The notes under the pieces are model-generated. The model did no database searches. It worked only from the letters and a program-made list of their open reading frames with translations, and was not told the origin of the DNA. A stretch of DNA of 64,000 bases, from positions 1 to 64,000 of IMG/VR virus record IMGVR_UViG_3300014204_000120. One strand, 5' to 3'. The first letter of the stretch is position 1; every line of letters starts with the position of its first letter. Origin of the DNA: a virus (lineage: Duplodnaviria; Caudoviricetes). Shown here piece by piece: positions 3,697 through 40,432 of this stretch. Made by a program: the position numbers and the translations under genes.

Positions 3697-5058
3697 ATGA
3701 GTCTTGCATTAGTTAAGAAATGGGAAGCCGCAGAAGGCAAAATGTCCATTAAAGAAATTAAGGACAAATACGTTAAGGAAAATCTTGCTACTCTTTTAGA
3801 GAACCAGGAAAGAAAAGACTTTAACGGTGGAGAAATTTTAGAAGAAAGCTCACAGGGTGCGATGAACTACGGTACGATGGGTGGTTATACTGACGGTGCC
3901 GCAGCTTCTGACTCCTGGATCTTCCGTCCTATTGCTCTCGCACTTGTTAGACGTACTTTCCCTGACTTGTTTGCTAATAAAGTAGTAGGCGTACAAGCTA
4001 TGAGCACACCAGTTGGTCTTGCTTATGCTATGAGAGTTCTTTACAACGATGGTAATGGTAACGAAGTTGCTTGGGATAAGGTGCCTGAATATGCTGGTTA
4101 TTCTGGCTCAACAGTTGGTGTTTCCGCTCTTTTAAATGGAACGCATTATAATACATCAGCCGCAGACGGTTATGTTGATACATCCGCTACTGGTGCTGCT
4201 ACTTCGGCTGCTGAAGGTTGGACGATTGATAATACTTGTGTTGCTGAAGAATCCGCAGTTGATGGTTGTGGTGATTGGCCTCAGCTAAGAATGAGAATCG
4301 ATCAGCTTGCTATTACTGCTAAGTCCAGAAAGTTAGCAGCTAGCTTCAGTTTGGAAGCTGCTCAGGACGTAAAAGCTATGCACGGTATTGATATTGAAAG
4401 AGAAATGGTAAACTTCCTTCAGTACGAAATTACTGCTGAAATGGATAGAGAACTTATTGCTAAGATGAAGACTGCCGCAACGACAACCGCTAATGGCGGA
4501 GAGTCAATTACTGCTGTCGATCTTACTGGTTCTGGAACAGGTGTTGATGGTAGATGGTCTGGTGAAAAATATATGAACATCATCGCCGCTATTATCTATC
4601 AAGCTAACAAGATTGCCGTTACAACTCGTAGAGGTCCTGGTAACTTCGTTATCGTATCTCCTGCGATTGCTACTGCTCTTCAGGCTGCTGGACACCAGTT
4701 CGTAGCGTTTGCTTCAAATAACAAGATTAACGCTACTCAGGTTATGTCTTCAATCGGTAAGCTAAATGGTCAGCTTGATGTTTACAGAGACCAGTATGCG
4801 CGTACTGAATATGCAATGGTTGGATATAAGGGTAATGGTATTAGCGACTGTGGTATAATCTTCAGTCCTTATATCATGGGATTAACAAATAGGGCAATCG
4901 AGCCAAGTGACTTTACACCGCGTATTGGTGTAATGAGCCGCTATGCAGTTACTGATACTCTATTAGGTAGTGGAAGATATTATAGATTGGTTCCGTTCTA
5001 TAATGTCAACAAGCTTATTCCGGGTGCAACTACTTCTAATCTACCTTCTGGTTTCTAA
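3697..5058 (+). CDS. Major capsid protein, T4 gp23-like
   Basis: LLENQE, LVRR..P.L.A..VVGVQAM..PVG, AKSRKL, AQDVKAMHGID, FSPYI, P..FTPRIGVMSRYA. Confidence 0.97.
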   Translation: MSLALVKKWEAAEGKMSIKEIKDKYVKENLATLLENQERKDFNGGEILEESSQGAMNYGTMGGYTDGAAASDSWIFRPIALALVRRTFPDLFANKVVGVQAMSTPVGLAYAMRVLYNDGNGNEVAWDKVPEYAGYSGSTVGVSALLNGTHYNTSAADGYVDTSATGAATSAAEGWTIDNTCVAEESAVDGCGDWPQLRMRIDQLAITAKSRKLAASFSLEAAQDVKAMHGIDIEREMVNFLQYEITAEMDRELIAKMKTAATTTANGGESITAVDLTGSGTGVDGRWSGEKYMNIIAAIIYQANKIAVTTRRGPGNFVIVSPAIATALQAAGHQFVAFASNNKINATQVMSSIGKLNGQLDVYRDQYARTEYAMVGYKGNGISDCGIIFSPYIMGLTNRAIEPSDFTPRIGVMSRYAVTDTLLGSGRYYRLVPFYNVNKLIPGATTSNLPSGF

Positions 5059-5089: not shown

Positions 5090-5123
5090 GGGTCAAGAGG
5101 ATTAATTTCCTCTTGACTTTTTT
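5090..5123 (+). terminator. Rho-independent terminator after the capsid gene
   Basis: GGGTCAAGAGG / CCTCTTGACTT stem followed by a T-tract. Confidence 0.85.
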
Positions 5124-5142
5124 ATTTGGAATATGTTAGATT
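5113..5142 (+). promoter_or_regulatory. Putative sigma70-type promoter overlapping the terminator
   Basis: TTGACT-18 nt-(TG)nTAGATT upstream of the endonuclease RBS AAAGGA. Confidence 0.45.
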
Positions 5143-5162: not shown

Positions 5163-6836
5163 ATGATTTGTTCAATATGTGGATATACAAATGATTCTAA
5201 TAGATCATTTGCTAAACATATCAAAAAGCATAATATATCTATTAAAGAGTATTATGATAAGTTTTTGAAAACAGAAACTGATGGTATATGTATTTGTGGT
5301 AAAAAAACTAATTTTAAGAATATAGTTAAAGGATATTTTAGATATTGTTCATTAAAGTGTTCAGCTAATAGTGAAAAAACTATAAAGATTAGAAAAGAAA
5401 CTACAAAGAATAGATATGGTGATGAAAATTATAGAAATGTAGAAGCTAGTAAAAATGTATGGAATTCTAAGAGCGCTGAAGAAGTTAATGATATAGTTGA
5501 TAAACGTCGCCAAACTAAAGCTATTTTATATGGTAATGAAAAGTTTAATAATAGAGAAAAATCTATTGAAACTTGTAAAAATCGTTATGGTGTTAATCAT
5601 TTTACAAATAGAGATTTAGCTAAAAAAACATGTTTAGAAAAATATGGTGTAGATAATCCTTTTGCGGCAGAACAAGTTAAAAATGATATAAAACAGCATT
5701 GGGAATCGTTGGGTGTAACTCATCCAATGCATTTAAAATCAATTAAAAACAAAGTAACAAAAAACAGATTATTACATTATAAAAATAATTTAATTAATTT
5801 TATAGGTGATCAATTTGAAGTTTTAGATTATTTGGGTGAAAATGATATACATTTGAAGTGTAAAGAATGTAATAAGGATTTTTGGATACAGAAGCAGTTA
5901 ATATTATTTAGGTTAGAAAATAAAATAACACCGTGTTTACATTGTGTTAAATACGGAAGTATATCAAACAATGAAAATAATTTATTAAGTTATATTAAAA
6001 CAATTTATAGTGGTGAAATAATTGAAAATAGTAGAAAGATTATAGAGCCATATGAATTAGATATTTATTTACCAGAACTGAAGTTAGCATTTGAGTACGA
6101 TGGGTTATATTGGCATAATGAGAATTTTGTTAATAATAGTTATCATTTAAATAAAACTGAGTTGTGTGAAAAATTAGGTATACAATTAATACATATTTAT
6201 GAAGATGATTGGATTTATAATAATAGTATAGTTAAGTCTAGAATTTTAAATTTATTGAATAAGGTTACTAGAAAGATATATGCTAGAGAATGTGTTGTAA
6301 AGGAAGTTAGTTCCATTGAATCAAATAATTTTTTAAAAGACAATCATTTACAAGGTATATGTAATGCTAAAATACGATTAGGATTGTGGTATGATGAAGA
6401 ATTGGTTTCATTGATGACTTTTAGTGGATATAGAAAGAATTTGGGTAAAGTTAAAGAAACTAATTGTTATGAGTTATTAAGATTTTGTAGTAAATTAGAA
6501 ACAGTTGTTGTTGGAGGATCGAATAAATTATTTAAACATTTTATTAACACATATAGTCCTGATAAAGTTATAAGTTATGCCGATCGTAGTTGGTCTTCAT
6601 TATTAAAAAGTAATGTATATTTAAAAATGGGATTTAATTTTATTAGAAATACAGATATTAATTATTACTATATATTAAGAGATAGACGAGTTAATAGATT
6701 CAAATATAGAAAAAGTGAGTTGATTAAAGAAGGATTTGATAGTAAAAAGTCTGAAAAAACAATAATGTTAGAAAGAAAGATATATAGAATATATAATAGC
6801 GGTAATTTACTATTTGAATGGACTAAAACAGACTAA
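5163..6836 (+). CDS. Free-standing homing-endonuclease-like protein (Zn ribbons, KYGV-type repeats, PD-(D/E)XK domain)
   Basis: CxxC motifs, TCLEKYGVDNPF repeats, ELDIYLPELKLAFEYDGLYWH, C-terminal ISYADRSWS domain. Confidence 0.75.
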   Translation: MICSICGYTNDSNRSFAKHIKKHNISIKEYYDKFLKTETDGICICGKKTNFKNIVKGYFRYCSLKCSANSEKTIKIRKETTKNRYGDENYRNVEASKNVWNSKSAEEVNDIVDKRRQTKAILYGNEKFNNREKSIETCKNRYGVNHFTNRDLAKKTCLEKYGVDNPFAAEQVKNDIKQHWESLGVTHPMHLKSIKNKVTKNRLLHYKNNLINFIGDQFEVLDYLGENDIHLKCKECNKDFWIQKQLILFRLENKITPCLHCVKYGSISNNENNLLSYIKTIYSGEIIENSRKIIEPYELDIYLPELKLAFEYDGLYWHNENFVNNSYHLNKTELCEKLGIQLIHIYEDDWIYNNSIVKSRILNLLNKVTRKIYARECVVKEVSSIESNNFLKDNHLQGICNAKIRLGLWYDEELVSLMTFSGYRKNLGKVKETNCYELLRFCSKLETVVVGGSNKLFKHFINTYSPDKVISYADRSWSSLLKSNVYLKMGFNFIRNTDINYYYILRDRRVNRFKYRKSELIKEGFDSKKSEKTIMLERKIYRIYNSGNLLFEWTKTD

Positions 6837-8711: not shown

Positions 8712-9118
8712 TGTCATTTAAAGAATATTTAAAAGAAGTTAATGATGTAAAAATTAGCGGAGTAACTATTAATTGGTTAAAAAATTGGCAGTGGAATAAG
8801 CATGTAGAGTTTCCATCAGATGATATAATTGAAGAATTGAAGGTATATGCACCTAAGAAGAATATACTGGAATTATATAGATATATAGATTTTGATGATA
8901 TTGCAAACGAAAAATCAAAAAAATTAAGATCATATACTAAAAATAAGGATATGGTTTTAAATTTTATTGAATTTGAAGATCCTATGCGCGGATATATAGA
9001 AGTATGGTATGGCGTTCCAGCTGATAAGATATTAATTGATTTATCTTTATTACCAAGTAAGTATTTAAAGATGATAGATCATGCTGAAATGAATGAAGTT
9101 ATTGTAATTGGATATTAA
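8711..9118 (+). CDS. Putative internal protein, possibly ADP-ribosyltransferase-like
   Basis: MSFKEYLKE start; LYR...SYT...NEVIV resembles the R-S-E ART pattern (weak). Confidence 0.45.
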   Translation: MSFKEYLKEVNDVKISGVTINWLKNWQWNKHVEFPSDDIIEELKVYAPKKNILELYRYIDFDDIANEKSKKLRSYTKNKDMVLNFIEFEDPMRGYIEVWYGVPADKILIDLSLLPSKYLKMIDHAEMNEVIVIGY

Positions 9119-9146
9119 AATAAGATTTAATAAAAGGAGCTAAATA

Positions 9147-9482
9147 ATGTCATATAAAGAATATTTAAAGGAAAGGTTTGATAAGTTTCAGCCAAGTCAA
9201 AACAGTGCAGAAGATTATATAGATTATTTAGAAGGCACGTTAATACCGGATTTACGTGAGTCTGGTAATGATGCAACGGCTGATGATTTTGAAAAAGTTA
9301 TAGAAATGTTAAAATACGATGAAAGAGATAAAAGGTTTGTATATAAAGGAAGATTTATTTACGCAGAATTTGTAGATTATTTAAAAGATACGTTAATACC
9401 GGATTTACGTGATTCTGGTATGGAGGCAACTGCTGAAGATTTTGAAGAAGGATTATATTGGTTAGAACAAGGAGATAAATAA
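9147..9482 (+). CDS. Putative internal protein with internal duplication
   Basis: MSYKEYLKE start; DYL..TLIPDLR.SG..ATA.DFE occurs twice. Confidence 0.65.
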   Translation: MSYKEYLKERFDKFQPSQNSAEDYIDYLEGTLIPDLRESGNDATADDFEKVIEMLKYDERDKRFVYKGRFIYAEFVDYLKDTLIPDLRDSGMEATAEDFEEGLYWLEQGDK

Positions 9483-11667: not shown

Positions 11668-12570
11668 ATGAGTCACGAATATTTATCACAAGAACAAGCA
11701 GAAAAAATATTAAAGAATAATTTTTCTAATTGGATATTTAAACCATTTATTTATCAGGGTTATAGAAAAACTAGAGTTGATTATATATGTGAAAATGGCC
11801 ATGAAGGAAATGCTAATTTTGCAAATTTACAACAAAATAAAGGTTGTATGAAATGTCGTATAATTAAAAACGCAAATCGATGTAGAAAATCATATGAAAA
11901 TGCAATAAAACAATTATATAAAAAAAGACCTAATTGGATATTTGATCCATTTGAATATAAAAATGTACAAACTAGAATTTATTATACTTGTGATAAAGGT
12001 CATAAACATCACGCTACTTTTTTAAATATTATAAAAGGTAGAGGTTGTCCGTTTTGTAGTAAATATAAAATTCGTAGAAATCAAGAGCAAGCCGAATTGT
12101 ATGTTCAATCATTAAGACCTACATGGATATTTGATCCTTTTATTTATAAAGGGGCTTTTACTAGAGTCTATTATACATGTGAAAAAGGTCATAAACATAG
12201 TGCTACGATTAATAATTTAGGGAGATATGGATGTCCATATTGTAATGAATCTATTGGTGAAAGAATAATTGAAACTATATTAAAGGATAAATCAATAAAA
12301 TATATTAGACAATATAGATTTGAAAATTGTTGTAGTAAACGAAAACTTCCTTTTGATTTTTATTTACCTGATTATAATACTTGTATAGAATATGACGGCG
12401 AATTACATTTTAAATGTGTTAAATATTTTGGTGGAATAAAAGCATTTAGAAAAACTAAAATGAGAGATAAAATAAAAACTAATTATTGTAAAAATAATAA
12501 TATTAAATTAGTTAGAATAAATTATAAACAACGAAATAATATATCTAATATATTAAATAATATATTATAA
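11668..12570 (+). CDS. Homing-endonuclease-like protein (three Zn-ribbon repeats plus Vsr-like/PD-(D/E)XK domain)
   Basis: WIF.PF.Y....TR..Y.C..GH...GC..C repeated three times; FDFYLPDYNTCIEYDGELH. Confidence 0.75.
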   Translation: MSHEYLSQEQAEKILKNNFSNWIFKPFIYQGYRKTRVDYICENGHEGNANFANLQQNKGCMKCRIIKNANRCRKSYENAIKQLYKKRPNWIFDPFEYKNVQTRIYYTCDKGHKHHATFLNIIKGRGCPFCSKYKIRRNQEQAELYVQSLRPTWIFDPFIYKGAFTRVYYTCEKGHKHSATINNLGRYGCPYCNESIGERIIETILKDKSIKYIRQYRFENCCSKRKLPFDFYLPDYNTCIEYDGELHFKCVKYFGGIKAFRKTKMRDKIKTNYCKNNNIKLVRINYKQRNNISNILNNIL

Positions 12571-12582
12571 GGAATAATTGAT

Positions 12583-15500
12583 ATGTTTGAAGGAAATAAA
12601 TCATTAAGAAAAGCTGGTGAAAAAATTAATTATACTCAAGATATGGTTAATGAAATAGTTAAATGTAAATCTGATATAATTTATTTTGCAGAAAAATATT
12701 ATACTATTGTAACTATTGACGGTGGTAAACAAAATATTGCATTGTGGAATTGGCAGAAAAAAGTATTGAAAGCTTATATGAATCCTCCTAATAATAAAAA
12801 GAATATTATTTTGAAGATTGCTAGACAGAGTGGAAAATGTGTTTATATAGACAGTATTGTAAGAATTAGAAATAAGAGAAATGATGAAATTAAAGAAATT
12901 AAAATAGGAGATTTTTATAAAATACCAAATCATAAAAAAATAAAACCAATTGATAATAAGTTTATTGAATCTTTTGAAGTTGAAGAATGGGAAGTTGAGA
13001 CAAATTCAGGTTGGAAAGATATAACTCATATTCATAAAACTATTAAATTTGATATCTGGGAAGTAATTACAGAAAAATGTAGTTTAAAATGTGCTGATGA
13101 TCATATAGTAATGATTAATGATTTTAAGCAAAAGTTTGTTAAAGATTTAATTGTTGGGGTTGATAAAGTTATTACTAAAAATGGATTGGAAAAAGTAACA
13201 TTAGTTCAAAAGTTAGATATAGAACCACAAGAAATGTATGATATAACCGTAAAATCAGATACTCATACACTATATACAAATAATATATTATCTCATAATA
13301 CTACAATCACAACTATATTTTTATTATGGTATGTTTTATTTAATAAAGATAAGACAGCAGCTATAATGGCAAACAAAGAAGCTTTATCAATAGAAATATT
13401 AGATAGAATTAAAATAGCATTAAAATTTATTCCAGTATGGTTACAACAAGGTATAGTTGATTGGAATAAAAAATCAGTAGTGTTAGAAAATGGTAGTCGT
13501 ATTATAGCAGCTGCAACATCAAGCCAATCATTAACAGGGTTTACAATTAATTTACTTTATTTAGATGAATTTGCAAAAGTGCCTCAACATATTGCGGATG
13601 ATTTTATTGCGTCGACTTATCCAGTTATTACTTCTGGTAAAACATCGATGATCATTATGGTATCCACGCCTTTTGGCATGAACCATTTTTATAAATTTTG
13701 GATGGATGCAACTAGAAAGGATAGTAATACAAATAGTTTTTATCCTATAAGTGTAGGATGGTGGGAAGTGCCAGGTCGTGATGAAAATTTTAAAAAGGCT
13801 GTTATTAAAGATATTGGTAGAGTAAAATGGCAACAGGAATATGGAACTCAATTTTTAGGTTCATCATCAACATTAATTGACCCTGATATTTTAGAAAGAA
13901 TAGTATATAAAAATCCAGTAGCAACTAAATGGACTGGTTTATTATTGATATATGAACAGCCTCAAAACGGAATTACTTACGTTTTAGGGGTGGATTCTGG
14001 TAAAGGTACAGGTAGAGATTATTCGGTTATTCAGGTATTGAAAATTATTAACGAGTATAATATTGAACAAGTAGCATTATATAGAAATAATTTTGTTCGA
14101 CCACATGACTTCTCTCAGGTAGTTGTATCAATAGCTCAATTTTTTAATAATGCTTATATAATGATTGAGAATAATGATATAGGTCAATCTGTATGTGATA
14201 ATGTATGGTATGAATTGGAATATGAAAATTTAGTGAATGTTGATATGAAAGGATTGGGAATTAGAAGTACTAAATCATCAAAAAGAAATGCTAATGCTCT
14301 TTTAAAAGAATACGTAGAAAAACATTGGTTAAATATATGTGATGAACGCACTGTTTATGAATTAAGCAGATATGAAGAAGTAAAGCCGAACGTATTTGCT
14401 GCTGGGAAACACGAGCACGACGATTGTTTTAAAGAGGATACATTAATTAAAACCAAAAGAGGATATGTTTCAATTAAAGAAGTAAAAATCGGTGATGAAG
14501 TATTAACGCATAAAGGTAGATGGAAAAAAGTAACTAATTTAATTAAAAAACAATTTAATGGAGATTGGTACGATATTAAATTTAAGGGATTGCTTAACTT
14601 ATCAACTAGTTATAATCATCCAATTTATACAGATGAAAGAAGTTGGGTTATAGCTCAAGATTGGAAAACTCAATCATGTATTTCTGTTAAAATGCCATTA
14701 GAAAAAAATAAAAATAAAGTTTTAAAGTTTGATGATTATGTTGAAGTTAAAAAAATGGGGTATAATATTAATAAATTTGATTTGGTTATGGATTTTAATT
14801 TTGCTAAATTTTTAGGATTATTTTTAGCAGAGGGTTGTTGTGATAGAGTTAAAAGTCATCATTATACGATGTCTATGGCATTTCATATTAAAGAAGTTTA
14901 TCTTATTAATGAAATGTCAGAATATTTAAAAACTATAGGAATTAAATCACATATTTATTATCCAAAAGGAAAAAAAGGATGTTGTTTAACGTTTTCAAGT
15001 AAATTTTTATATACTGTTTTAAGTAAATGTTATGATAAAAATCGTTTTAAAGTTTTACCAGAATATGCTTTTGATTTAGGTGAAGATTTAAAATACGTTT
15101 TAGAGTATTGGCTTAAAGGAGATGGTTGGCATAGTAATGTTAAAAATAAGAATGATCATACTATAGGTGCGTCTATTAGTAAAAAATTAGCTTTAGATAT
15201 GAGAGATATAGCAATTTCTTTGGGTAAAAAAGCTAATATTCAAAAAGTAACTAAAAGAAAAAAAGGCGAAAAAGACCAGTATCATGTGACAGTATATAAT
15301 GATTATAATAAAAATTGTAATAGTCATAGTGTTATACCAATTTCAAATTTTGAAACACTTCATAAATTATCATATAAAAAAGAAAAACCTTTAATACAAA
15401 AAAGTCATTTTGAAGGTACTGTTTATAATATAAGTGTAGAGGAAGACGAAAGTTTTGTATGTGAAGGTATAGTTGTTCATAATTGTGTAACTTCTTTATT

Positions 15501-15696
15501 ATGGTCATTATTTTTTATTAAAACTGAAGAATATGATAGTGGAAACGAAGGTAATAAAACAATAACAGATGAGTATAATGTAGATAAAGGTAATTGGGAT
15601 GAAAAGGATGTAGAAGTTAAGGATGATAAGAAGGATATAGATGGATCTGACGGAAAGGGGGATCCTAATTGGCAGCCTTCAGCAATTTTTGTATGA
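12583..15696 (+). CDS. terL: Terminase large subunit, T4 gp17-like, with two inteins
   Basis: ARQSGK|TT Walker A, LYLDEFA Walker B, VSTPFG, GVDSGKG.GRDYS, HDD|C nuclease motif. Confidence 0.95.
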   Translation: MFEGNKSLRKAGEKINYTQDMVNEIVKCKSDIIYFAEKYYTIVTIDGGKQNIALWNWQKKVLKAYMNPPNNKKNIILKIARQSGKCVYIDSIVRIRNKRNDEIKEIKIGDFYKIPNHKKIKPIDNKFIESFEVEEWEVETNSGWKDITHIHKTIKFDIWEVITEKCSLKCADDHIVMINDFKQKFVKDLIVGVDKVITKNGLEKVTLVQKLDIEPQEMYDITVKSDTHTLYTNNILSHNTTITTIFLLWYVLFNKDKTAAIMANKEALSIEILDRIKIALKFIPVWLQQGIVDWNKKSVVLENGSRIIAAATSSQSLTGFTINLLYLDEFAKVPQHIADDFIASTYPVITSGKTSMIIMVSTPFGMNHFYKFWMDATRKDSNTNSFYPISVGWWEVPGRDENFKKAVIKDIGRVKWQQEYGTQFLGSSSTLIDPDILERIVYKNPVATKWTGLLLIYEQPQNGITYVLGVDSGKGTGRDYSVIQVLKIINEYNIEQVALYRNNFVRPHDFSQVVVSIAQFFNNAYIMIENNDIGQSVCDNVWYELEYENLVNVDMKGLGIRSTKSSKRNANALLKEYVEKHWLNICDERTVYELSRYEEVKPNVFAAGKHEHDDCFKEDTLIKTKRGYVSIKEVKIGDEVLTHKGRWKKVTNLIKKQFNGDWYDIKFKGLLNLSTSYNHPIYTDERSWVIAQDWKTQSCISVKMPLEKNKNKVLKFDDYVEVKKMGYNINKFDLVMDFNFAKFLGLFLAEGCCDRVKSHHYTMSMAFHIKEVYLINEMSEYLKTIGIKSHIYYPKGKKGCCLTFSSKFLYTVLSKCYDKNRFKVLPEYAFDLGEDLKYVLEYWLKGDGWHSNVKNKNDHTIGASISKKLALDMRDIAISLGKKANIQKVTKRKKGEKDQYHVTVYNDYNKNCNSHSVIPISNFETLHKLSYKKEKPLIQKSHFEGTVYNISVEEDESFVCEGIVVHNCVTSLLWSLFFIKTEEYDSGNEGNKTITDEYNVDKGNWDEKDVEVKDDKKDIDGSDGKGDPNWQPSAIFV
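12838..13299 (+). mobile_element. Mini-intein (154 aa) in the terminase Walker A
   Basis: Begins CVYIDS after SGK, contains CADDH block B, ends SHN before T; no LAGLIDADG domain. Confidence 0.9.
14425..15483 (+). mobile_element. Intein (353 aa) with LAGLIDADG endonuclease in the terminase nuclease domain
   Basis: Begins CFKEDT after HDD, contains LGLFLAEG and YWLKGDG motifs, ends VHN before C. Confidence 0.92.
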
Positions 15697-15936: not shown

Positions 15937-15962
15937 TAGAAAATTAATACTTGGAGGAAATA

Positions 15963-17873
15963 ATGGCAAGAGTATTTAAAGCTCCTGGAATAAAAAGAGA
16001 CGAAATTGATTTATCTGAAATATTGATTCCAACTGGCACATCTAATGGTGGTATTGTACTTCGCGCTAAAAGAGGTCCTGTAAATAGACCTGTTTATATT
16101 TCTAATGATAAAGAATTTGTAGAAACATTTGGAGAGCCAATTTATACTTCAGGAACAGATAATACAACAACGAATGGAAAACTAATACCTGAATATGGTT
16201 ATGGTGCTTATGCTGCTTTGGAATTTTTAAAAGAATCAAGTTCCCTTTATGTGGTTAGAGATTATACTACAACTGCTGATACATATGCGTTTGCAAGTTT
16301 TGATAGTAGTTTAAATTATACTATTCAAAGCGCTGGTGTTTCTGGTGATAAATTTGAAAGAGGAAATAGATTAGATACATCTGAATATATTAGTATAATT
16401 GATGAATATGCTGGTGTTGGTGGATCTGGAGCAAGTAAAGTTATTGTTTCTTATGTTGGTCCTGGTGTAGATGGTAATAGCATTGCTGTTACTATTGAAC
16501 CATTTAGTCTTTCTGCTGATTGGAAATTTGCATATGATAATTATCCTTCTTCAGCTCATGCGGCTTCTGCTGCTTCATTAGAAAATGCTGAAATTGAAAG
16601 ATGGTATCCAATAGCAAGTCAAGTATTTAAATTGAATGTGTATACAAAATCTACTGATAAAAACTGGGAAGACTATTTTAAAACCGAAGCTGAAAGAACT
16701 GCTAAAACACTTTATATTTCTCCAACAGAATCATTTTATGGTTCGATTGACGAAGATCTTAAAGACGGTAATAATAATGATCTCTTTATTGAGAATATTG
16801 TCAACGGAGTTTCAAAATACATTTATATAAAGAAAGGTGTTACATTAGCAGTTAATCATTTTGATTATGTTAATAGTGTAAGTGATGTTTCAGCGTTACC
16901 TGATGCAGAAGATACTAACGGCGATACTTATGTTAAATACGATATGACAACAGCCGGTTCTTCAACTAATAGACTAGCTATTCTATCAGGTGGAGCAAGC
17001 AGCCAGAGTAACGGCCTTACTGATACTGCCGGTTGGACAATTTTTGAAGATAGAGAAAACGCAAATGTTAATATCTTAATTGGTACATCATATAGCACAA
17101 CAGTAAAACAAGAAATTGCCAGAATCGCATCAGTTCGTGCAGACTGTATTGCTGTGGTTCCTGCAGGTCAATTAAACCATGATACTGTAGCTGATGTTAA
17201 AGCTACTGAAGAATATGGTTATAGAAGTCCTTCATATGTTGCTATCTATGCGGGATTTTCAAAAGTATATGATAAGTACAATGACAAATATCTATATATA
17301 CCTAATTCAATTTTTGGTGCGGCTTTAATGGCAAGAGTTGATAATGTTGCTAATCCTTGGGATGCTCCTGCCGGTACTAATAGAGGAGTTTTACCTGTAG
17401 TAGATCAAAGAAAAATTTGGACAGAAACGGAAATAGGGGATCTATACGAATACAATATTAATGTACCGAAACTTACTAGAGGTTATGGACATGTCATGTG
17501 GGGAAACCGTACCTCCCAGTTGAAAAAGTCAGCACTTGATAGAATTAACGTGAGAAGAGGTTTACTATATATTGAGAATAATGTTGAGATCGCATTACTA
17601 CCATTTTTATTTGAAAACAATACAGCTAGAACAAGATTACGTGTGTTTAGTGTGGTTGACTCATTTTTAGCATCAGTACAAGCGGCTGGTGGATTAACTT
17701 CATATAAAGTGATCTGTGACGAGACTAATAATAGTAGTACTGTTATAGATTCTAATCAATTAAATGTAGATCTGTACGTGGCCAACGCACGCACGATAGA
17801 GTATATAAAATTGACTACTGTAGTAACACGTACCGGTATTTCATTTGATGAAGTTCAATTAACATCAGTGTAA
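15963..17873 (+). CDS. Tail sheath protein, T4 gp18-like
   Basis: APGI...EIDLS, GPVN.P, PWDAPAG.NRG, SALDRINVRR, FENN..RTR, CDETNN; ATG at 15963 after GGAGG. Confidence 0.95.
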   Translation: MARVFKAPGIKRDEIDLSEILIPTGTSNGGIVLRAKRGPVNRPVYISNDKEFVETFGEPIYTSGTDNTTTNGKLIPEYGYGAYAALEFLKESSSLYVVRDYTTTADTYAFASFDSSLNYTIQSAGVSGDKFERGNRLDTSEYISIIDEYAGVGGSGASKVIVSYVGPGVDGNSIAVTIEPFSLSADWKFAYDNYPSSAHAASAASLENAEIERWYPIASQVFKLNVYTKSTDKNWEDYFKTEAERTAKTLYISPTESFYGSIDEDLKDGNNNDLFIENIVNGVSKYIYIKKGVTLAVNHFDYVNSVSDVSALPDAEDTNGDTYVKYDMTTAGSSTNRLAILSGGASSQSNGLTDTAGWTIFEDRENANVNILIGTSYSTTVKQEIARIASVRADCIAVVPAGQLNHDTVADVKATEEYGYRSPSYVAIYAGFSKVYDKYNDKYLYIPNSIFGAALMARVDNVANPWDAPAGTNRGVLPVVDQRKIWTETEIGDLYEYNINVPKLTRGYGHVMWGNRTSQLKKSALDRINVRRGLLYIENNVEIALLPFLFENNTARTRLRVFSVVDSFLASVQAAGGLTSYKVICDETNNSSTVIDSNQLNVDLYVANARTIEYIKLTTVVTRTGISFDEVQLTSV

Positions 17874-17966
17874 TATAAAGTTTGGGACAGCGTAGGCATA
17901 CGTTTCCTGAAAACCCTAAATGAAGTAGGGATTACCAAACTTTATAAACCTATTTAGGGAGGTTAT
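17874..17966 (+). ncRNA. Putative structured cis-regulatory RNA leader, copy 1
   Basis: 12-bp closing stem, GGGACAG...ATTACC core, loop complementary to the RBS hairpin loop; second copy at 39200-39295. Confidence 0.65.
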
Positions 17967-19367
17967 ATGTATTGTTATATATGTGATAAAGAAATTAATT
18001 ATCATAAAGCAGTATTCCCACAGTTACATATTGTTAAGCATCATCATATAACTCCAAAAGAGTATTATGATTTATATTTACGTAAAGAAAATGAGGGTGT
18101 ATGTTTGATGTGTGGAAAAGAAACCGAGTTTTTGGGTATTGGTATAACTAAAGGATATAGAAAATGTTGTAGTTCTATTTGTTCGAATAATTATATTGGA
18201 AAGAAAATTAAAACTAAAAAAACATTATTAGAAGTATATGGTGATGAAAAATATGTTAATGTTGATTTAATGAAAAAAACTAATATTAAAAAGTATGGAA
18301 CTGAATGTACATTACATACTGATAATAATAATGAAAAGATGAAAATTTTAAGAAATGCGCAAAGATTTGATAGATTAAGTGAGAAATTAAAAAAATATAA
18401 TATAAGTGTTGTTAATGTAGAAAACGTGCAATTTTATATTTTAAAATGTAATAATTGTAATAATGAATTTAAAATTGGTAAAGATTTATTTTATAATAGA
18501 ATAATTAATAATTATCCTGTTTGTTTAATATGTTATCCCTTGAAACGATCATCTGGCATAGAAGAAGAATTTAGTAAATATATTCAAGAGTTATATTTTG
18601 GTGAAATTATTAGAAATAGTAGAAAAATTATTGTTGGTAAAGAAATTGATATTTATATTCCAGAATTAAAGTTGGCGTTTGAGTTTAATGGGATATATTG
18701 GCATTCTATTTTAAATAAACATAAAAATTATCATAAAAATAAGACTGAGATGTGTGAGAAGTTAGGTATACATTTGATACATATATACGAAGACGATTGG
18801 GCTAATAAACAGAATATTATTAAAAATGAAATTAAAAAATTATTGAAATTGTTTGATAATGTGGAATTTAGTAAAGATGATATAGTTAAAGAAGTTAATA
18901 ATGAAGAAGCGACTATATTTTTAAAAGAGAATAGTTTATATGAAAATGTTTGTGGTAATGTAAATATTGGTTATTTTCATTGTAATCAGTTAGTTGCAAT
19001 TATGATATTTAATAAATTAATTAATAATAAGTATAAGTTATTAAGATGTTGTAATAAGTTAGTTATGAAAAATTATGAGATTGAAAAGAAAATGTTAGAT
19101 TATTTTAAAAATAAGTATAATCCAAATAATATAAATGTGTTAGTTGATAGATCTTGGATTTGTAATGAAATTAACTCATTATATAATGTTTTAGGATTTA
19201 CTTTTGTTTCTAAGACTAAACCGAATCGTTTTTATATAAATACTAATGATATTAGAGAAATAGATAAAAATTCAATTATGAACGATCCCAGTAAGTATAT
19301 ATACGATTCTGGCAATTTAAAATATAGATATGAAGTAGATTTAAATAAGGAGATAAAAAATGTCTAA
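17967..19367 (+). CDS. Homing-endonuclease-like protein, paralogue of 5163-6836
   Basis: EIDIYIPELKLAFEFNGIYWH and KTEMCEKLGIHLIHIYEDDW shared with the 5163 protein. Confidence 0.75.
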   Translation: MYCYICDKEINYHKAVFPQLHIVKHHHITPKEYYDLYLRKENEGVCLMCGKETEFLGIGITKGYRKCCSSICSNNYIGKKIKTKKTLLEVYGDEKYVNVDLMKKTNIKKYGTECTLHTDNNNEKMKILRNAQRFDRLSEKLKKYNISVVNVENVQFYILKCNNCNNEFKIGKDLFYNRIINNYPVCLICYPLKRSSGIEEEFSKYIQELYFGEIIRNSRKIIVGKEIDIYIPELKLAFEFNGIYWHSILNKHKNYHKNKTEMCEKLGIHLIHIYEDDWANKQNIIKNEIKKLLKLFDNVEFSKDDIVKEVNNEEATIFLKENSLYENVCGNVNIGYFHCNQLVAIMIFNKLINNKYKLLRCCNKLVMKNYEIEKKMLDYFKNKYNPNNINVLVDRSWICNEINSLYNVLGFTFVSKTKPNRFYINTNDIREIDKNSIMNDPSKYIYDSGNLKYRYEVDLNKEIKNV

Positions 19368-19908
19368 TCTAACGATCGAAGGCAGAGCTCGTAAGCTTCC
19401 GGATATTCAGCGTACATGGCTTTGGGAGCTTGTAATTCCAAGTATAACGGATGTAACTGGTGGAGTAATTCAGAATGTAGAGGATTTGATAGTACGTTGT
19501 AGAACAGCTGTTATTCCCGCTAGAGGTACTGAAGGAATTCAAAGCAGTTTTATGGGAATGACACAATGGTTTCCTAGCAAACCTACATTTACACAAACGT
19601 TTGATGTAACGATAGAGGAAACTGAAGATCAAATAGTTCATAAGGCATTAACGGCTTGGTCAGATATACTTTTTAATACGGATCCAACGGCTGCTAATGG
19701 TGGTTCGTCAACAAGACCTTTAAAGAGGGATATGGCGAAGGATATATATTTGGTTATGTATACGTATGATCAAAGAGAAATGAAAAAGAAAATTAGATTT
19801 TATAATGCGTATCCTGAGAATGTTGGCGATGTAACATTAGATTATACTGATAATGCATCAGTTAAATTCGGGTGCGTTTTTCGTTATGATTTCTGGCGTT
19901 TAGTTTAA
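19360..19908 (+). CDS. Tail tube protein, T4 gp19-like
   Basis: NAYP..VGDVTLDY...F...FRYDFW; follows the sheath gene. Confidence 0.85.
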   Translation: MSNLTIEGRARKLPDIQRTWLWELVIPSITDVTGGVIQNVEDLIVRCRTAVIPARGTEGIQSSFMGMTQWFPSKPTFTQTFDVTIEETEDQIVHKALTAWSDILFNTDPTAANGGSSTRPLKRDMAKDIYLVMYTYDQREMKKKIRFYNAYPENVGDVTLDYTDNASVKFGCVFRYDFWRLV

Positions 19909-36564: not shown

Positions 36565-39183
36565 ATGGCAACTAATTTTTTAAAGTACACATCGTTAACT
36601 TATGACTCAATTCTGCAACAAATAACAGATAAGTTTAATTCAGACTCTAGATTTGCTAACTTTAGACAATCTGCTATCGCTTCTCTTATGGCTGAAATAT
36701 TTGCCGGCGTTGCAGACTTAGTTAACTATAATTTAGAAAGACGAGCCGAGGAAGCCTTTTTAGACACAGCCAAACTTAAAAGTTCGGTTATTCTACTTTC
36801 CCGTATGCTTGGTTATGTAATGCAAAGACCAATTCCTGCTTCGGCTACTTTAAAAATTAAATTGAAAGGTGACTTTAGTTCCATTATTAGTACTACAGAT
36901 AAATTACAAATACCTTTACAATCATCATTTAGTTATGGTGGTTATAAATTTATTTTAAAGAAAACACTAATAATTAATCTTTCATCATACGTAGACGCAA
37001 TGATATTAGACGGCGCTGCTTATGAATCAGACTATATTACTGTAGACCAAAATAATGATGCTATTGATATCATTCAAGGCGAAATTAAAGAAAAAGTAAT
37101 TGAAGGATCTACTAACCCTCTAATTGGATCCACATTCCAAGTCTATAAAATTGATGATACAGAATTTAGTAACATGTATGGCTCTGAAGACTACGATAAT
37201 CCTGTTACTAGAATTTGGATAGGCGATAATAAATCAACAGATAACGAATATACAATTGATAGAAGGTCTCTTATAAACTGGGAAGTCATTGAAGCGTTCT
37301 CAGATCAAGAAAATATTAAAGTCGCCGTAGTTAGATCTGCTATTAATGAAGGTGTAGAATTACTTTTTGGTAACGGTAGATATGCTAGTGATGGTGTGAA
37401 CTATACTACATCCGGTGGTGCTATAACTTCATATGATAATTTATACGTTCAATACTTAGCTACTAAAGGTTTTAAAGCTAATCAATCAGGCGTTGTTGAT
37501 AAAAAAGTAACATATAGTGGTAGAGTTTATACTAATACCGGAAAGGATATCACAAACAAAGTTGATTTTTATTTTGCTACTAATATAGTTGGTGGCGCTG
37601 ATGCTGAAAGTCTAGAATCTATTAAGTATAACTCACCAGGAATCTTTGCGGCATTAGATCGATGCGTAACAAAGGATGATTATGTAAACTATTTAAAATC
37701 ATTAACTTCTCCTATTAGTATTAAAAATGCTATTGCTTTTGGAGAAGCTGAAGAACTAAACTCTGATACAGGTCGTGATGCAGTTATTCGCCTATTTAAT
37801 GTAGTCCTATTCTCAGTCTTAGGTCATTTATACCAAGTTAATACTTCACCATATTACTATTATACTAAAGAAAATGGTTTGGATAATAACGTACTAGACT
37901 CAAACTTTAATATAGACGATATATCTTACTGGAACTATTTTAATGTGTTTGTTAAAGGAGATACAGAAAGCCTAACAGCTAACTCCCAAATAGTAAGACA
38001 ACTAAAAGAATATACAACATCAGCATTCCAATATAAAATCTATGGTCACGAAATAGATGATACTACTGGCGCATACTATAGTACAAACTACGGTGAAAAT
38101 TTAACTTTATACATCAGCTATACTACAGACGATTCATCTTATAATACAAGTCTAAGCGCTGATACTTCTATTACTGTTGACGTTAGAAGTTTGTCATCTA
38201 AATCAAACGATACCGACGCAATGGAAACTCTAGCATCTCTAATCCAAACTCAACTATTATTAGTCACCGATACTCGCGGTTCTAACACAACAGAAAATAC
38301 ACACTATAATCAAACGGCATTCCCTAACGTTACTGTTACATACGATTCAACAGATAAAGACCTGACTATAGCTTTTGGACAGAATACACCATGTTATATT
38401 GACGAATTTACTAGCGCTACAGGTGCTTCTGATTTAGGACTAAGAATACTATCAGGAACTGCAGCCGTTGGACCTGACGCAGTACTTGTATCTCTGACTA
38501 ATAACCTAAGTCAGAATATAATCAGCGTGGTAGATAAGTTGGACACAAGAGCGCAAATCACAACCAGACCAATATATCTATCAAGTATTATTGAAAAAAT
38601 TAAAATTACTGGTGTGGTAAAAATAAACAGCCTTTATGATACAGAAACTGAAAGAACTAATTTTTATGATGCAATATACAAATGGGCAGATACAACAGCA
38701 GATTTTAAAATTAATCTTTATAAAAGTTCTGTCATAGAAATTATTGAACAGTTTACATCTGTTAAATATACAAATATAAATTTTGAGGCGGATTATCCTA
38801 CACCAGTTAGTACATCAGCATTTTATATAACGGGTGCTAATAAATGGGTTAATAATGGATTTAGTAATAATGCTCAAAAATTATATGCTTATAATTTAAT
38901 TGATCAAAAGATTAATGATTTTTTGGTAGACGAATCTTTGATAACGAAAAGATATTTTTTGGTAACTTTTGCTAAAAATTTATATAATGCTTTTAAAAAT
39001 TTGGGCGGAAATTATGCTACGTTTGTTGATACCATTAATTTTAATAATCTAATTTCTGATATTAATAAAGATTATATTTATATAATGAGAACTAATATGT
39101 TAGATGACGATGGTAATATTACTGAATATTCACTTCCAAATCAAATAGTACAGTTAATATGTAATTTAAATATTGAGTATTAA
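36565..39183 (+). CDS. Baseplate wedge protein, gp6-like
   Basis: EAFLDTA....SV..L...LGY, FGNG, GGADAES.ESIK.N.P..FA..DRCVT..DY. Confidence 0.9.
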   Translation: MATNFLKYTSLTYDSILQQITDKFNSDSRFANFRQSAIASLMAEIFAGVADLVNYNLERRAEEAFLDTAKLKSSVILLSRMLGYVMQRPIPASATLKIKLKGDFSSIISTTDKLQIPLQSSFSYGGYKFILKKTLIINLSSYVDAMILDGAAYESDYITVDQNNDAIDIIQGEIKEKVIEGSTNPLIGSTFQVYKIDDTEFSNMYGSEDYDNPVTRIWIGDNKSTDNEYTIDRRSLINWEVIEAFSDQENIKVAVVRSAINEGVELLFGNGRYASDGVNYTTSGGAITSYDNLYVQYLATKGFKANQSGVVDKKVTYSGRVYTNTGKDITNKVDFYFATNIVGGADAESLESIKYNSPGIFAALDRCVTKDDYVNYLKSLTSPISIKNAIAFGEAEELNSDTGRDAVIRLFNVVLFSVLGHLYQVNTSPYYYYTKENGLDNNVLDSNFNIDDISYWNYFNVFVKGDTESLTANSQIVRQLKEYTTSAFQYKIYGHEIDDTTGAYYSTNYGENLTLYISYTTDDSSYNTSLSADTSITVDVRSLSSKSNDTDAMETLASLIQTQLLLVTDTRGSNTTENTHYNQTAFPNVTVTYDSTDKDLTIAFGQNTPCYIDEFTSATGASDLGLRILSGTAAVGPDAVLVSLTNNLSQNIISVVDKLDTRAQITTRPIYLSSIIEKIKITGVVKINSLYDTETERTNFYDAIYKWADTTADFKINLYKSSVIEIIEQFTSVKYTNINFEADYPTPVSTSAFYITGANKWVNNGFSNNAQKLYAYNLIDQKINDFLVDESLITKRYFLVTFAKNLYNAFKNLGGNYATFVDTINFNNLISDINKDYIYIMRTNMLDDDGNITEYSLPNQIVQLICNLNIEY

Positions 39184-39199
39184 GATATTTTAATATAAA

Positions 39200-39295
39200 T
39201 AATGGTAGAAAGTTGGGACAGCCACAAATGGTTTTCTAACCCCAATTTAGAATTACCTTCTTTCTACTATTAAAAAACCTTATTGGGAGGTTTTG
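39200..39295 (+). ncRNA. Putative structured cis-regulatory RNA leader, copy 2
   Basis: Same architecture and core as 17874-17966; begins right at late promoter 39194-39201. Confidence 0.65.
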
Positions 39296-40432
39296 ATGTG
39301 TAAAAAATTAACTAAAGAAGAATTTATTGAACGATCAAAAAAAATTCACGGTAATAAATACGATTATAGTTTAGTAGATTATATTAATAATAATACTAAA
39401 GTTAAAATTATTTGTTTAAAATGTAATAAAATATTTGAACAAACACCAAATAATCATTTAAATGGTAAGGGTTGTAAAAAATGTAGAAAAACTAAGCACA
39501 AAATGTCAACAATTGAATTTATTGCAAGAGTAAAAGAGATTTGGGGTGATGTTTATGATTATAATTTGGTAGAATATAATAATTTAAACGATAATATTAA
39601 AATTATATGTAAGATTCATGGAGTGTTTAAACAAAAACCTAAAGATCATCTTAGAGGTTGCGGTTGTAGACAATGTGGTATAGATAAAACTAGAAAATTA
39701 AAAATAATGTCATGGGATGATGTTTTAACAAAGTTTAAAAAAATTTATGGTAATGAATATGATTATAGTGAATCTGTGTATCTTTCAATGAATTATCCGA
39801 TTGCTATAATTTGTAAAAATCATGGAATTTTTTATATGTTGCCTAAATATCATTTACATAATGGTGGATGTCCAAAATGCTCAAGACAAAAAATGATAAT
39901 TACAAAAACCAAAAAAATAGAAAATGTTTTATTAGATTTTCGAAATGTTCATGGTGATAATTATGATTATAGTCAGGTTGAATATATTAATAGTAGAACT
40001 AAAATTAAAATTATATGTAAAAAACACGGGATATTTGAACAAACACCAAACAATCATTTAAGAGGTGAATGTTGTCCTAAATGTAAAATATCATTAGGAG
40101 AAAATAAAATATTAATTTGGTTAAATAAAAATAAAATAAAATTTGAACAGCAGAAAGAATTTGATGGTTGTCAATGTAAATTTAATTTAAAATTTGATTT
40201 TTATTTATCAGATTATAATATCTGTATTGAATATGATGGAGGATTACATTTTAAACCTGTTGAATATTTTGGTGGTGAAGAAGCACACGAAAAAACTAAA
40301 ATGAGAGATCAAATAAAAAATGATTATTGTAAAAATAATAATATTAAACTATTTAGGATACCATATTGGAAATTTAATGATATAAATTATATTTTAAAGA
40401 ATATAATAGAAGAAGCAAAAAACTTTTTTTGA
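39296..40432 (+). CDS. Homing-endonuclease-like protein (four YDYS.V.Y...KIIC..HG.F.Q.P..HL.G.GC..C repeats plus Vsr-like domain), related to 11668-12570
   Basis: Repeats visible; FDFYL.DYN.CIEYDG.LHF...YFGG...KTKMRD shared with 11668. Confidence 0.78.
   Translation: MCKKLTKEEFIERSKKIHGNKYDYSLVDYINNNTKVKIICLKCNKIFEQTPNNHLNGKGCKKCRKTKHKMSTIEFIARVKEIWGDVYDYNLVEYNNLNDNIKIICKIHGVFKQKPKDHLRGCGCRQCGIDKTRKLKIMSWDDVLTKFKKIYGNEYDYSESVYLSMNYPIAIICKNHGIFYMLPKYHLHNGGCPKCSRQKMIITKTKKIENVLLDFRNVHGDNYDYSQVEYINSRTKIKIICKKHGIFEQTPNNHLRGECCPKCKISLGENKILIWLNKNKIKFEQQKEFDGCQCKFNLKFDFYLSDYNICIEYDGGLHFKPVEYFGGEEAHEKTKMRDQIKNDYCKNNNIKLFRIPYWKFNDINYILKNIIEEAKNFF

Follow-up and report, generated by a model that had tools for sequence, protein, structure and literature searches.

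The 64-kb window analysed here is the first part of a 137,849-base IMG/VR record (IMGVR_UViG_3300014204_000120; completeness estimate 53%). It has a G+C content of 30.5% and encodes late genes of a large, uncultured myovirus-like phage. Two homing endonuclease genes of the window, A and B, are each preceded by a structured RNA leader, in which a three-way junction carries in the loop of its third arm a sequence complementary to the ribosome-binding site (RBS) of the gene. These leaders (copies A and B) are typical cis members of an uncatalogued RNA family that is widespread among uncultured tailed phages, and we consider it probable, at roughly 70%, that they act as a cis-acting translational throttle which moves together with its gene cassette.

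Structure of the two leaders

Both copies follow one layout. Helix P1 ends in GG/CC and is followed by an unpaired GAC (junction strand J1/2); P2 runs from AGC to GUU and includes a G-U pair; P3 abuts P2 directly and is closed by a U-A pair, after which an unpaired UUA (J3/1) leads back into P1. A short linker separates the junction from a 5-bp hairpin, P4, whose loop and 3' strand contain the Shine-Dalgarno (SD) sequence GGGAGG. The loops of P3 and P4 are complementary over 8 nt in copy A (CCCUAAAU/AUUUAGGG) and over 6 nt in copy B (CCCAAU/AUUGGG). The individual features that the original prediction, made from the sequence of the window, had listed at 17874-17966 and 39200-39295 are all present there:

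17874-17946 (+): three-way junction of copy A, identified by its sequence, by model matches R1 (37.4 bits) and R2 (48.5 bits) and by family covariation
17874-17885 with 17935-17946 (+): P1 of copy A, 12 bp
17886-17888 (+): J1/2 of copy A, GAC
17889-17904 (+): P2 of copy A, strands 17889-17894 and 17899-17904, loop GGCA
17905-17908 with 17928-17931 (+): P3 of copy A, 4 bp, loop 17909-17927
17914-17921 (+): anti-RBS of copy A, CCCUAAAU, in the P3 loop; 8-nt perfect complement of 17952-17959, duplex -11.4 kcal/mol
17932-17934 (+): J3/1 of copy A, UUA
17947-17969 (+): region containing P4 of copy A, AACCU (17947-17951) with AGGUU (17960-17964), a 5-bp stem closing directly on the target
17952-17959 (+): P4 loop of copy A, AUUUAGGG, overlapping the SD sequence GGGAGG (17957-17962); ATG at 17967
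17967-19367 (+): homing endonuclease A, 466 amino acids, phrog_3339 / phrog_559, between the tail sheath and tail tube genes
39200-39272 (+): three-way junction of copy B, identified by its sequence and by model matches R1 (31.8 bits) and R2 (42.4 bits); its minimum free energy (MFE) fold equals the consensus fold
39200-39212 and GG 39215-39216, with CC 39256-39257 and 39260-39272 (+): P1 of copy B
39217-39219 and 39253-39255 (+): J1/2 (GAC) and J3/1 (UUA) of copy B
39220-39233 (+): P2 of copy B, loop CAAA
39234-39252 (+): P3 of copy B, 7-nt loop CCCCAAU
39241-39246 (+): anti-RBS of copy B, CCCAAU, in the P3 loop; 6-nt perfect complement of 39282-39287, duplex -7.8 kcal/mol
39276-39292 (+): P4 of copy B, AACCU/AGGUU, part of region 39276-39298; loop with AUUGGG (39282-39287), SD sequence GGGAGG (39285-39290), ATG at 39296
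39296-40432 (+): homing endonuclease B, 378 amino acids, phrog_559, with DUF4379 treble-clef repeats, after the baseplate wedge gene

Folded singly, both copies are more stable than their shuffled versions (z = -2.8 for A and -3.4 for B). The third stem of the original prediction is present in both; in copy A it comprises 4 bp with a closing U-A pair and not the 6 bp proposed, the longer version borrowing a U from P2. Within 17914-17930 of copy A, the UAGGG of the P3 3' side has the same sequence as the RBS-proximal UAGGG and is a possible internal competitor.

The genes behind the two leaders were predicted to belong to different families, and the two endonucleases have no detectable pairwise similarity (best E 0.2). 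The predicted absence of the element before their paralogues in the window was also confirmed: it precedes neither the gene at 5163-6836 (31% identity to endonuclease A) nor that at 11668-12570 (38% identity to endonuclease B). The latter has a plain AAGGAG site in place of the leader, and the former sits behind an intrinsic terminator that comes after the head gene. This strong terminator, located at 5091-5126 between the major head gene and the leaderless paralogue, may represent another way to insulate an endonuclease from a very abundant transcript.

The RNA family and its gene contexts

A pattern scan of IMG/VR revealed a third copy, in which every helix is changed and the loop-RBS pair is now CCCUUAA/UUAAGGG, and looser patterns yielded dozens more. 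A covariance model was seeded with five copies of equal length; MAFFT, applied to copies of mixed geometry, had misplaced P3 and P1. Among 100 sources, mostly chance pattern matches, the model matched only the structured ones, and across all the loci collected from IMG/VR it found 69 copies, of which 64 are distinct. In the alignment of distinct copies 92.9% of the cells pair, compared with 62.0% after shuffling and 38-50% when the partners are slid. Double compensatory changes occur in 16 of the 20 pairs of the covariance-model alignment, and the covariation score is 0.747 against 0.167. RNAalifold recovers the same three helices independently, with double changes in 14 of 18 pairs. Covariation in homologues, which had been named as a test of the original prediction, was thus found, and its strength matches that of curated Rfam families.

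Since the earlier patterns had fixed GGGACAGC, GTTT and ATTACC, the search was repeated with a P2-only pattern that leaves the junction free. This returned 53 structured members, with GACAGC and AUUA, and also GUU, kept in 53/53, and with covarying closing pairs of P1 (GG/CC in 37, AG/CU in 15, CA/UG in 1). The invariant core of the family is GAC / AGC..GUU / U..A / UUA, and the stems around it covary; variants with U-A in place of the conserved C-G pair of P2 were found by the model.

Pairing between the P3 loop and the RBS was evaluated in the 41 copies having an open reading frame (ORF) start within 50 nt, the target being the copy's own downstream 60 nt. Perfect complementarity of the loop extends over at least 6 nt in 33 of these copies and over at least 7 nt in 24, compared with 19% and 4.5% of mismatched loop-target partners, and none of 2000 permutations reached 33. 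The paired segment ends 1-13 nt (median 8) ahead of the start codon. A P4 stem of at least 3 bp surrounds the target in 27 of 33 copies, compared with 47% of mismatched flanks (0 of 5000 permutations). These permutation results show that the kissing-loop model is correct for the whole family and not for the phage of the window alone. The leader that had been proposed, a covarying three-way junction of which one loop kisses the RBS, is thus supported. Helices, invariant junction, loop-RBS and P4 covariation and gene contexts are direct observations on these copies.

Full viral records scanned with the model (n = 48) contain one to five copies each. The family members span about 32% to 68% G+C, and their hosts look diverse. 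Scanning 185,579 species genomes of bacteria and archaea with the pattern gave 120 rows and no convincing member, and the family therefore looks phage-specific. Rfam 15 has no match to the element. At gathering thresholds the search covered the 64-kb window and 16 loci, and with more permissive limits it covered the interval 17500-19500 (E up to 10) and 13 related loci (E up to 1); the matches near the element in related loci are group I introns, tRNAs, a tmRNA and int-alpA. The original prediction had not recognised the leader as a named family, and across the window and 29 related loci this remains so for Rfam 15.

BLAST searches of limited sensitivity, with three subfamily-core queries against 50,697 GenBank phage records, gave chance matches only. 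A fourth query, which began 6 nt upstream of the model match 9091-9155 of locus L138, covered the GGGACAGC core and P2 and extended into the downstream flank, gave just two matches, both in its downstream part. A model scan with strict filters of ten GenBank records, eight of them cultured phages (T4, CP30A, phiR1-RT, DAC16, K, SPO1, fHe-Yen9-04, Munch, LR756504 and Lak-B1 were scanned), found no copy. These BLAST and model searches, both of limited sensitivity, thus revealed no cultured phage carrying the element.

The endonucleases downstream of the cis form are of the HNH/NUMOD4, GIY-YIG, LAGLIDADG-plus-HTH and phrog_559/3339 types. About one-third of the copies precede other genes, encoding DUF1376, Prim-Pol primase, DNA methylase, HTH_36, DUF5055 and unnamed small proteins, and one weaker copy, with no convincing loop-RBS match, precedes TnpB. 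A same-strand ORF ends at most 62 nt upstream in 20 of 33 copies. In four loci (L003, L061, L157 and L177) leader and endonuclease follow a full group I intron core (RF00028) at a distance of 28-170 nt, and the leader probably sits in the 3' peripheral region of the intron. An intron-borne nature of endonucleases A and B was considered and rejected: RF00028 has no match in the 64-kb window (Rfam at gathering thresholds), none of the sheath, tube and baseplate genes is split, and A and B are hence both free-standing. The window copies and the intron-core loci together indicate that the leader accompanies free-standing and intron-borne endonucleases alike.

Two minor variations were observed among cis copies. 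At L064:9158-9272 the locked RBS serves only a 14-codon ORF, and the next gene has its own strong RBS, which is possibly a leader-peptide variant. The P2 loop contains a 6-nt palindrome (UUCGAA, UUGCAA, UAGCUA, UCAUGA or CUGCAG) in 18 of 39 cis copies, for example in L079, L135, L145, L003, L155 and L201, against 2.1 expected. Such palindromes would permit loop-loop dimers; copies A and B lack them and have the plain tetraloops GGCA and CAAA.

About one-third of the family has no downstream loop-RBS match and constitutes an antisense form, with a short P3 loop, a long CUCC-rich P2 loop and an outer P1 of ATAAATAG/CTATTTAT. These copies are located on the strand opposite an adjacent, divergently oriented gene, as in the following examples and about 25 other loci:

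L218:3344-3412 (-): antisense-form copy
L196:1104-1173 (+): antisense-form copy
L191:1989-2054 (-): antisense-form copy
L156:8476-8545 (+): antisense-form copy

The P2 loop of this form repeats 6-9 nt of the flank, and hence is the reverse complement of the RBS region of the divergent gene. A match of at least 6 nt to the reverse complement of the RBS was found in 21 of 31 copies, compared with 12% for mismatched partners (0 of 3000 permutations), and the start codon of the divergent gene lies 3-9 nt beyond the match. Further antisense copies in full records agree, such as those with 9-nt matches in L375 and L377. When ten divergent neighbours were compared with PHROGs, seven fell into endonuclease or homing endonuclease families and one into a family of unknown function; the two unmatched proteins begin, on inspection of their sequences, with GIY-YIG-like N-terminal motifs. 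Many antisense-form copies are inside phage tRNA arrays, and some run directly into an intrinsic terminator or U-tract. G-U pairs outnumber A-C mismatches by about 5:1 in both arrangements, and by about 2.5:1 when the pattern-fixed invariant G-U pair of P2 is left out, which indicates that the junction strand is the RNA strand.

The simplest reading of these sequence relations is that the antisense form would be a stand-alone small RNA acting in trans on the RBS of its neighbour, in the manner of a type I antitoxin. More tentatively, the junction could be a programmable 'anti-RBS presenter' that works in cis through the P3 loop and in trans through the P2 loop, its core recruiting a common partner (ribosome, RNase or chaperone) or driving RNA-RNA docking; the whole would then form an antitoxin-like system taming selfish nucleases.

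A tRNA-like gene was rejected as an identity of the element, as ARAGORN, applied to the antisense-form loci, called nothing on it; T-loop-like P2 loops are confined to one subfamily. In L152 a class II aminoacyl-tRNA synthetase-like gene (599-1813; tRNA-synt_2b and HGTP_anticodon) is located just downstream of the antisense-form element, the target of which is a GIY-YIG gene on the other side.

Proposed translational control and competing explanations

In the proposed mechanism, a three-way junction of 55-75 nt with an invariant core would display the anti-RBS in its third-arm loop, which would kiss the loop of P4, the small hairpin downstream in whose loop the 5' portion of the SD sequence lies. 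The 3' portion would be tied up in the P4 stem, so that the RBS would be doubly sequestered and the leader would compete with the 30S subunit for it. Translation of the downstream gene would be held low and roughly constant despite very strong transcription of the late operon (sheath-tube or baseplate), and leader and gene would act as one mobile cassette, the same scaffold preceding at least four unrelated endonuclease catalytic families. The energies of the kissing duplexes, -11.4 and -7.8 kcal/mol, are in or just below the range of SD:anti-SD pairing (-11.8 to -13), and therefore competition is expected and not an absolute block. Such a throttle suits a gene that is needed in few copies yet is carried on some of the most abundant late messages, and it agrees with the control of T4-type homing endonuclease genes, for which sequestration of the RBS is established (PMC2988022). 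That the pairing reduces translation, and does so without an external signal, is our inference.

Several points weigh against this reading. Translational control is deduced from position and covariation. Most copies were first gathered by patterns with the fixed motifs mentioned above, and the alignment was fitted to the model. The MFE fold of copy A adopts another P3 register (CCCUA/UAGGG; -22.0 compared with -18.0 kcal/mol for the consensus), which partly hides the anti-RBS. The claim that the leader silences toxic nucleases holds in part: covariation favours silencing of the RBS over the other readings, but it is not specific to nucleases, and with about one-third of the family in front of non-nuclease genes the label 'nuclease silencer' is too narrow. 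Finally, an absolutely conserved junction goes beyond what merely masking the RBS would call for, and this hints that a partner is bound or that the tertiary fold is a demanding one.

The last point bears on a regulated switch, in which the junction would serve as a binding pocket, either for a conserved protein of host or phage (ribosomal protein, chaperone or RNase) or for an ion or small molecule, and binding would stabilise or release the kiss. The invariance of the core in all members found without fixing it, amid stems that all covary, is consistent with such a pocket, and its retention in the stand-alone antisense form suggests that the core has a role of its own. However, the downstream genes share no metabolic theme or single pathway, no conserved alternative terminator/antiterminator or second RBS conformer accompanies the element, no Rfam riboswitch matches it, and its members are spread over the wide G+C range and the diverse-looking hosts noted above; a switch is therefore regarded as unlikely. 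For a riboswitch ligand or self-cleavage, both suggested in the original prediction, no pointer was found, the genes not being metabolic and neither an alternative expression platform nor a ribozyme family match being seen.

Control dependent on the transcript, as in I-TevI and Aeh1 mobE, would place a promoter in the leader, giving shorter transcripts that lack the anti-RBS arm and are alone translated. It matches the T4 paradigm (PMC2988022). The T4-type late-promoter consensus TATAAATA occurs in the window 23 times on the coding (plus) strand, for example at 2841, 43084 and 58959, and 9 times on the opposite strand. Of the 23 plus-strand boxes, 19 lie between genes, in most cases 8-60 nt ahead of an ORF. 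This strand bias and intergenic placement indicate that the phage probably uses T4-type late promoters. In addition, TATA-rich words are enriched between the junction and the RBS target, the 3' strand of P1 included (TTTATA in 10 of 33 copies compared with 1.1 after shuffling). Against this explanation stands the position of the only consensus box of copy B:

39194-39201 (+): TATAAATA box abutting the 5' end of P1 of copy B

With a start site inferred about 6 nt after this box, the transcript would still include the junction and hence keep the lock. Copy A has only a 6-of-8 match, TATAAAGU, which is the 5' strand of P1 itself, with UUUAUA as its partner. The enriched words were accordingly rejected as promoters, being the pairing partners of the AU-rich outer 5' strand of P1, and in neither copy was a promoter seen inside the structure whose transcripts would lack the inhibitory arm. 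We judge this form of control to be quite improbable.

Very little weight is given to a role of the element in RNA processing or stability, or to its being a small ribozyme that cleaves itself, either of which would split the endonuclease message off the structural-gene message or cut at the docked RBS hairpin. Its location at cistron boundaries would suit such a role, as would the presence of the antisense form within tRNA arrays, which are sites of intense precursor processing, and a hairpin docked onto a junction by a loop-loop kiss recalls the layout of the VS ribozyme. However, Rfam 15 gives no ribozyme match even at E up to 1-10, the junction has just six unpaired nucleotides, and the sequences bear no mark of a cleavage site. 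A DNA-level feature, such as an endonuclease recognition site, a recombination hotspot or a cruciform, could be thought of for an element that accompanies homing endonuclease genes and whose outer P1 is an AT-rich inverted repeat. It is extremely improbable, as G-U pairs exceed A-C mismatches in a strand-specific way, the loop of the third arm follows the RBS at a constant distance from the start codon, and the stems change sequence freely yet keep pairing.

The proposed translational throttle has close counterparts in the RBS-sequestering hairpins of T-even phages (I-TevI, I-TevII, I-TevIII, segB and Aeh1 mobE; PMC2988022), which likewise are cis RNAs masking the SD sequence of an endonuclease gene within a host transcription unit, so that a risky nuclease is limited and the downstream genes are not blocked. 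Those hairpins are simple, lineage-specific and relieved by a late promoter inside them, whereas here the consensus box is outside the lock. In agreement with the original prediction, the leader is also more elaborate, with a junction of invariant core, the anti-RBS in one loop, the RBS in the loop of a second hairpin, and an occurrence in many unrelated phages and endonuclease families. A compact conserved junction and RBS pairing are shared with the SD-sequestering pseudoknot riboswitches (preQ1-II/III, SAM-II/V, NAD+-II). The purine riboswitch also has three helices and a loop-loop kiss, but between L2 and L3, while here P3 contacts an external RBS hairpin. In contrast to riboswitches, the element has no link to metabolic genes, no Rfam match and no indicated ligand, and no J2/3 strand separates its P2 from P3.

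Loops that present a sequence complementary to the translation initiation region of a harmful gene are likewise known from CopA/CopT, hok/sok, IstR-1/tisB, Zor/Orz and SymR/SymE, and the antisense form, like IstR, Orz and OhsC, is encoded divergently beside its target. Those antisense and type I RNAs lack a common scaffold, whereas here a single scaffold serves in cis and, as it seems, also in trans, targeting being the task of the P3 loop in the first arrangement and of the P2 loop in the second. The GIR1 lariat-capping ribozyme of twin-ribozyme group I introns is likewise a dedicated structured RNA with which an endonuclease message carried by an intron begins, but it is a catalytic RNA of about 190 nt from eukaryotic nuclear introns, and no catalysis is indicated for the phage leader. 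Candidate RNAs of the same source and kind, covarying motifs found in IMG/VR directly upstream of phage genes, have been described (PMC10690425); that text mentions no endonuclease-associated motif, and the family may be among the 10,006 unnamed candidates catalogued with it. Full-text literature searches and Rfam gave no description of the scaffold, the loop-loop geometry, the spread over endonuclease and non-nuclease genes, or the antisense form. RBS sequestration is known as a principle, and within this known type of control the conserved scaffold represents a new structural family.

Among the selfish genes of large phages, those for homing endonucleases are the most common, and how they remain harmless in essential, highly expressed operons is understood for few T4-type cases only. 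The leader would be a new class of structured RNA and a portable, sequence-programmable translational throttle, a single scaffold serving HNH, GIY-YIG, LAGLIDADG and phrog_559/3339 endonucleases as well as other low-dose genes. Its antisense form would possibly link cis leaders with trans-acting, antitoxin-like RNAs. In annotation, the element can also serve to flag mobile endonuclease cassettes, as well as small RNA genes that lie concealed within the tRNA arrays of phages.

Late genes and other selfish elements of the window

The structural and packaging genes among which the endonucleases are placed are the following:

3697-5058: major head protein gene
12583-15696: terminase large subunit gene with an intein
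15951-17873: tail sheath gene
19360-19908: tail tube gene
36565-39183: baseplate wedge gene

No terminator was found between the sheath gene, leader A, endonuclease A and the tube gene. The terminase intein carries a LAGLIDADG domain (Intein_splicing, Hint, LAGLIDADG_3) and is the fifth selfish element of the late region. Another TATAAATA box, at 19235-19242, is located within the 3' end of endonuclease A, 118 nt before the tube gene start at 19360, which overlaps the stop codon of endonuclease A; it looks like a tail-tube promoter embedded in the endonuclease ORF, as in T4.
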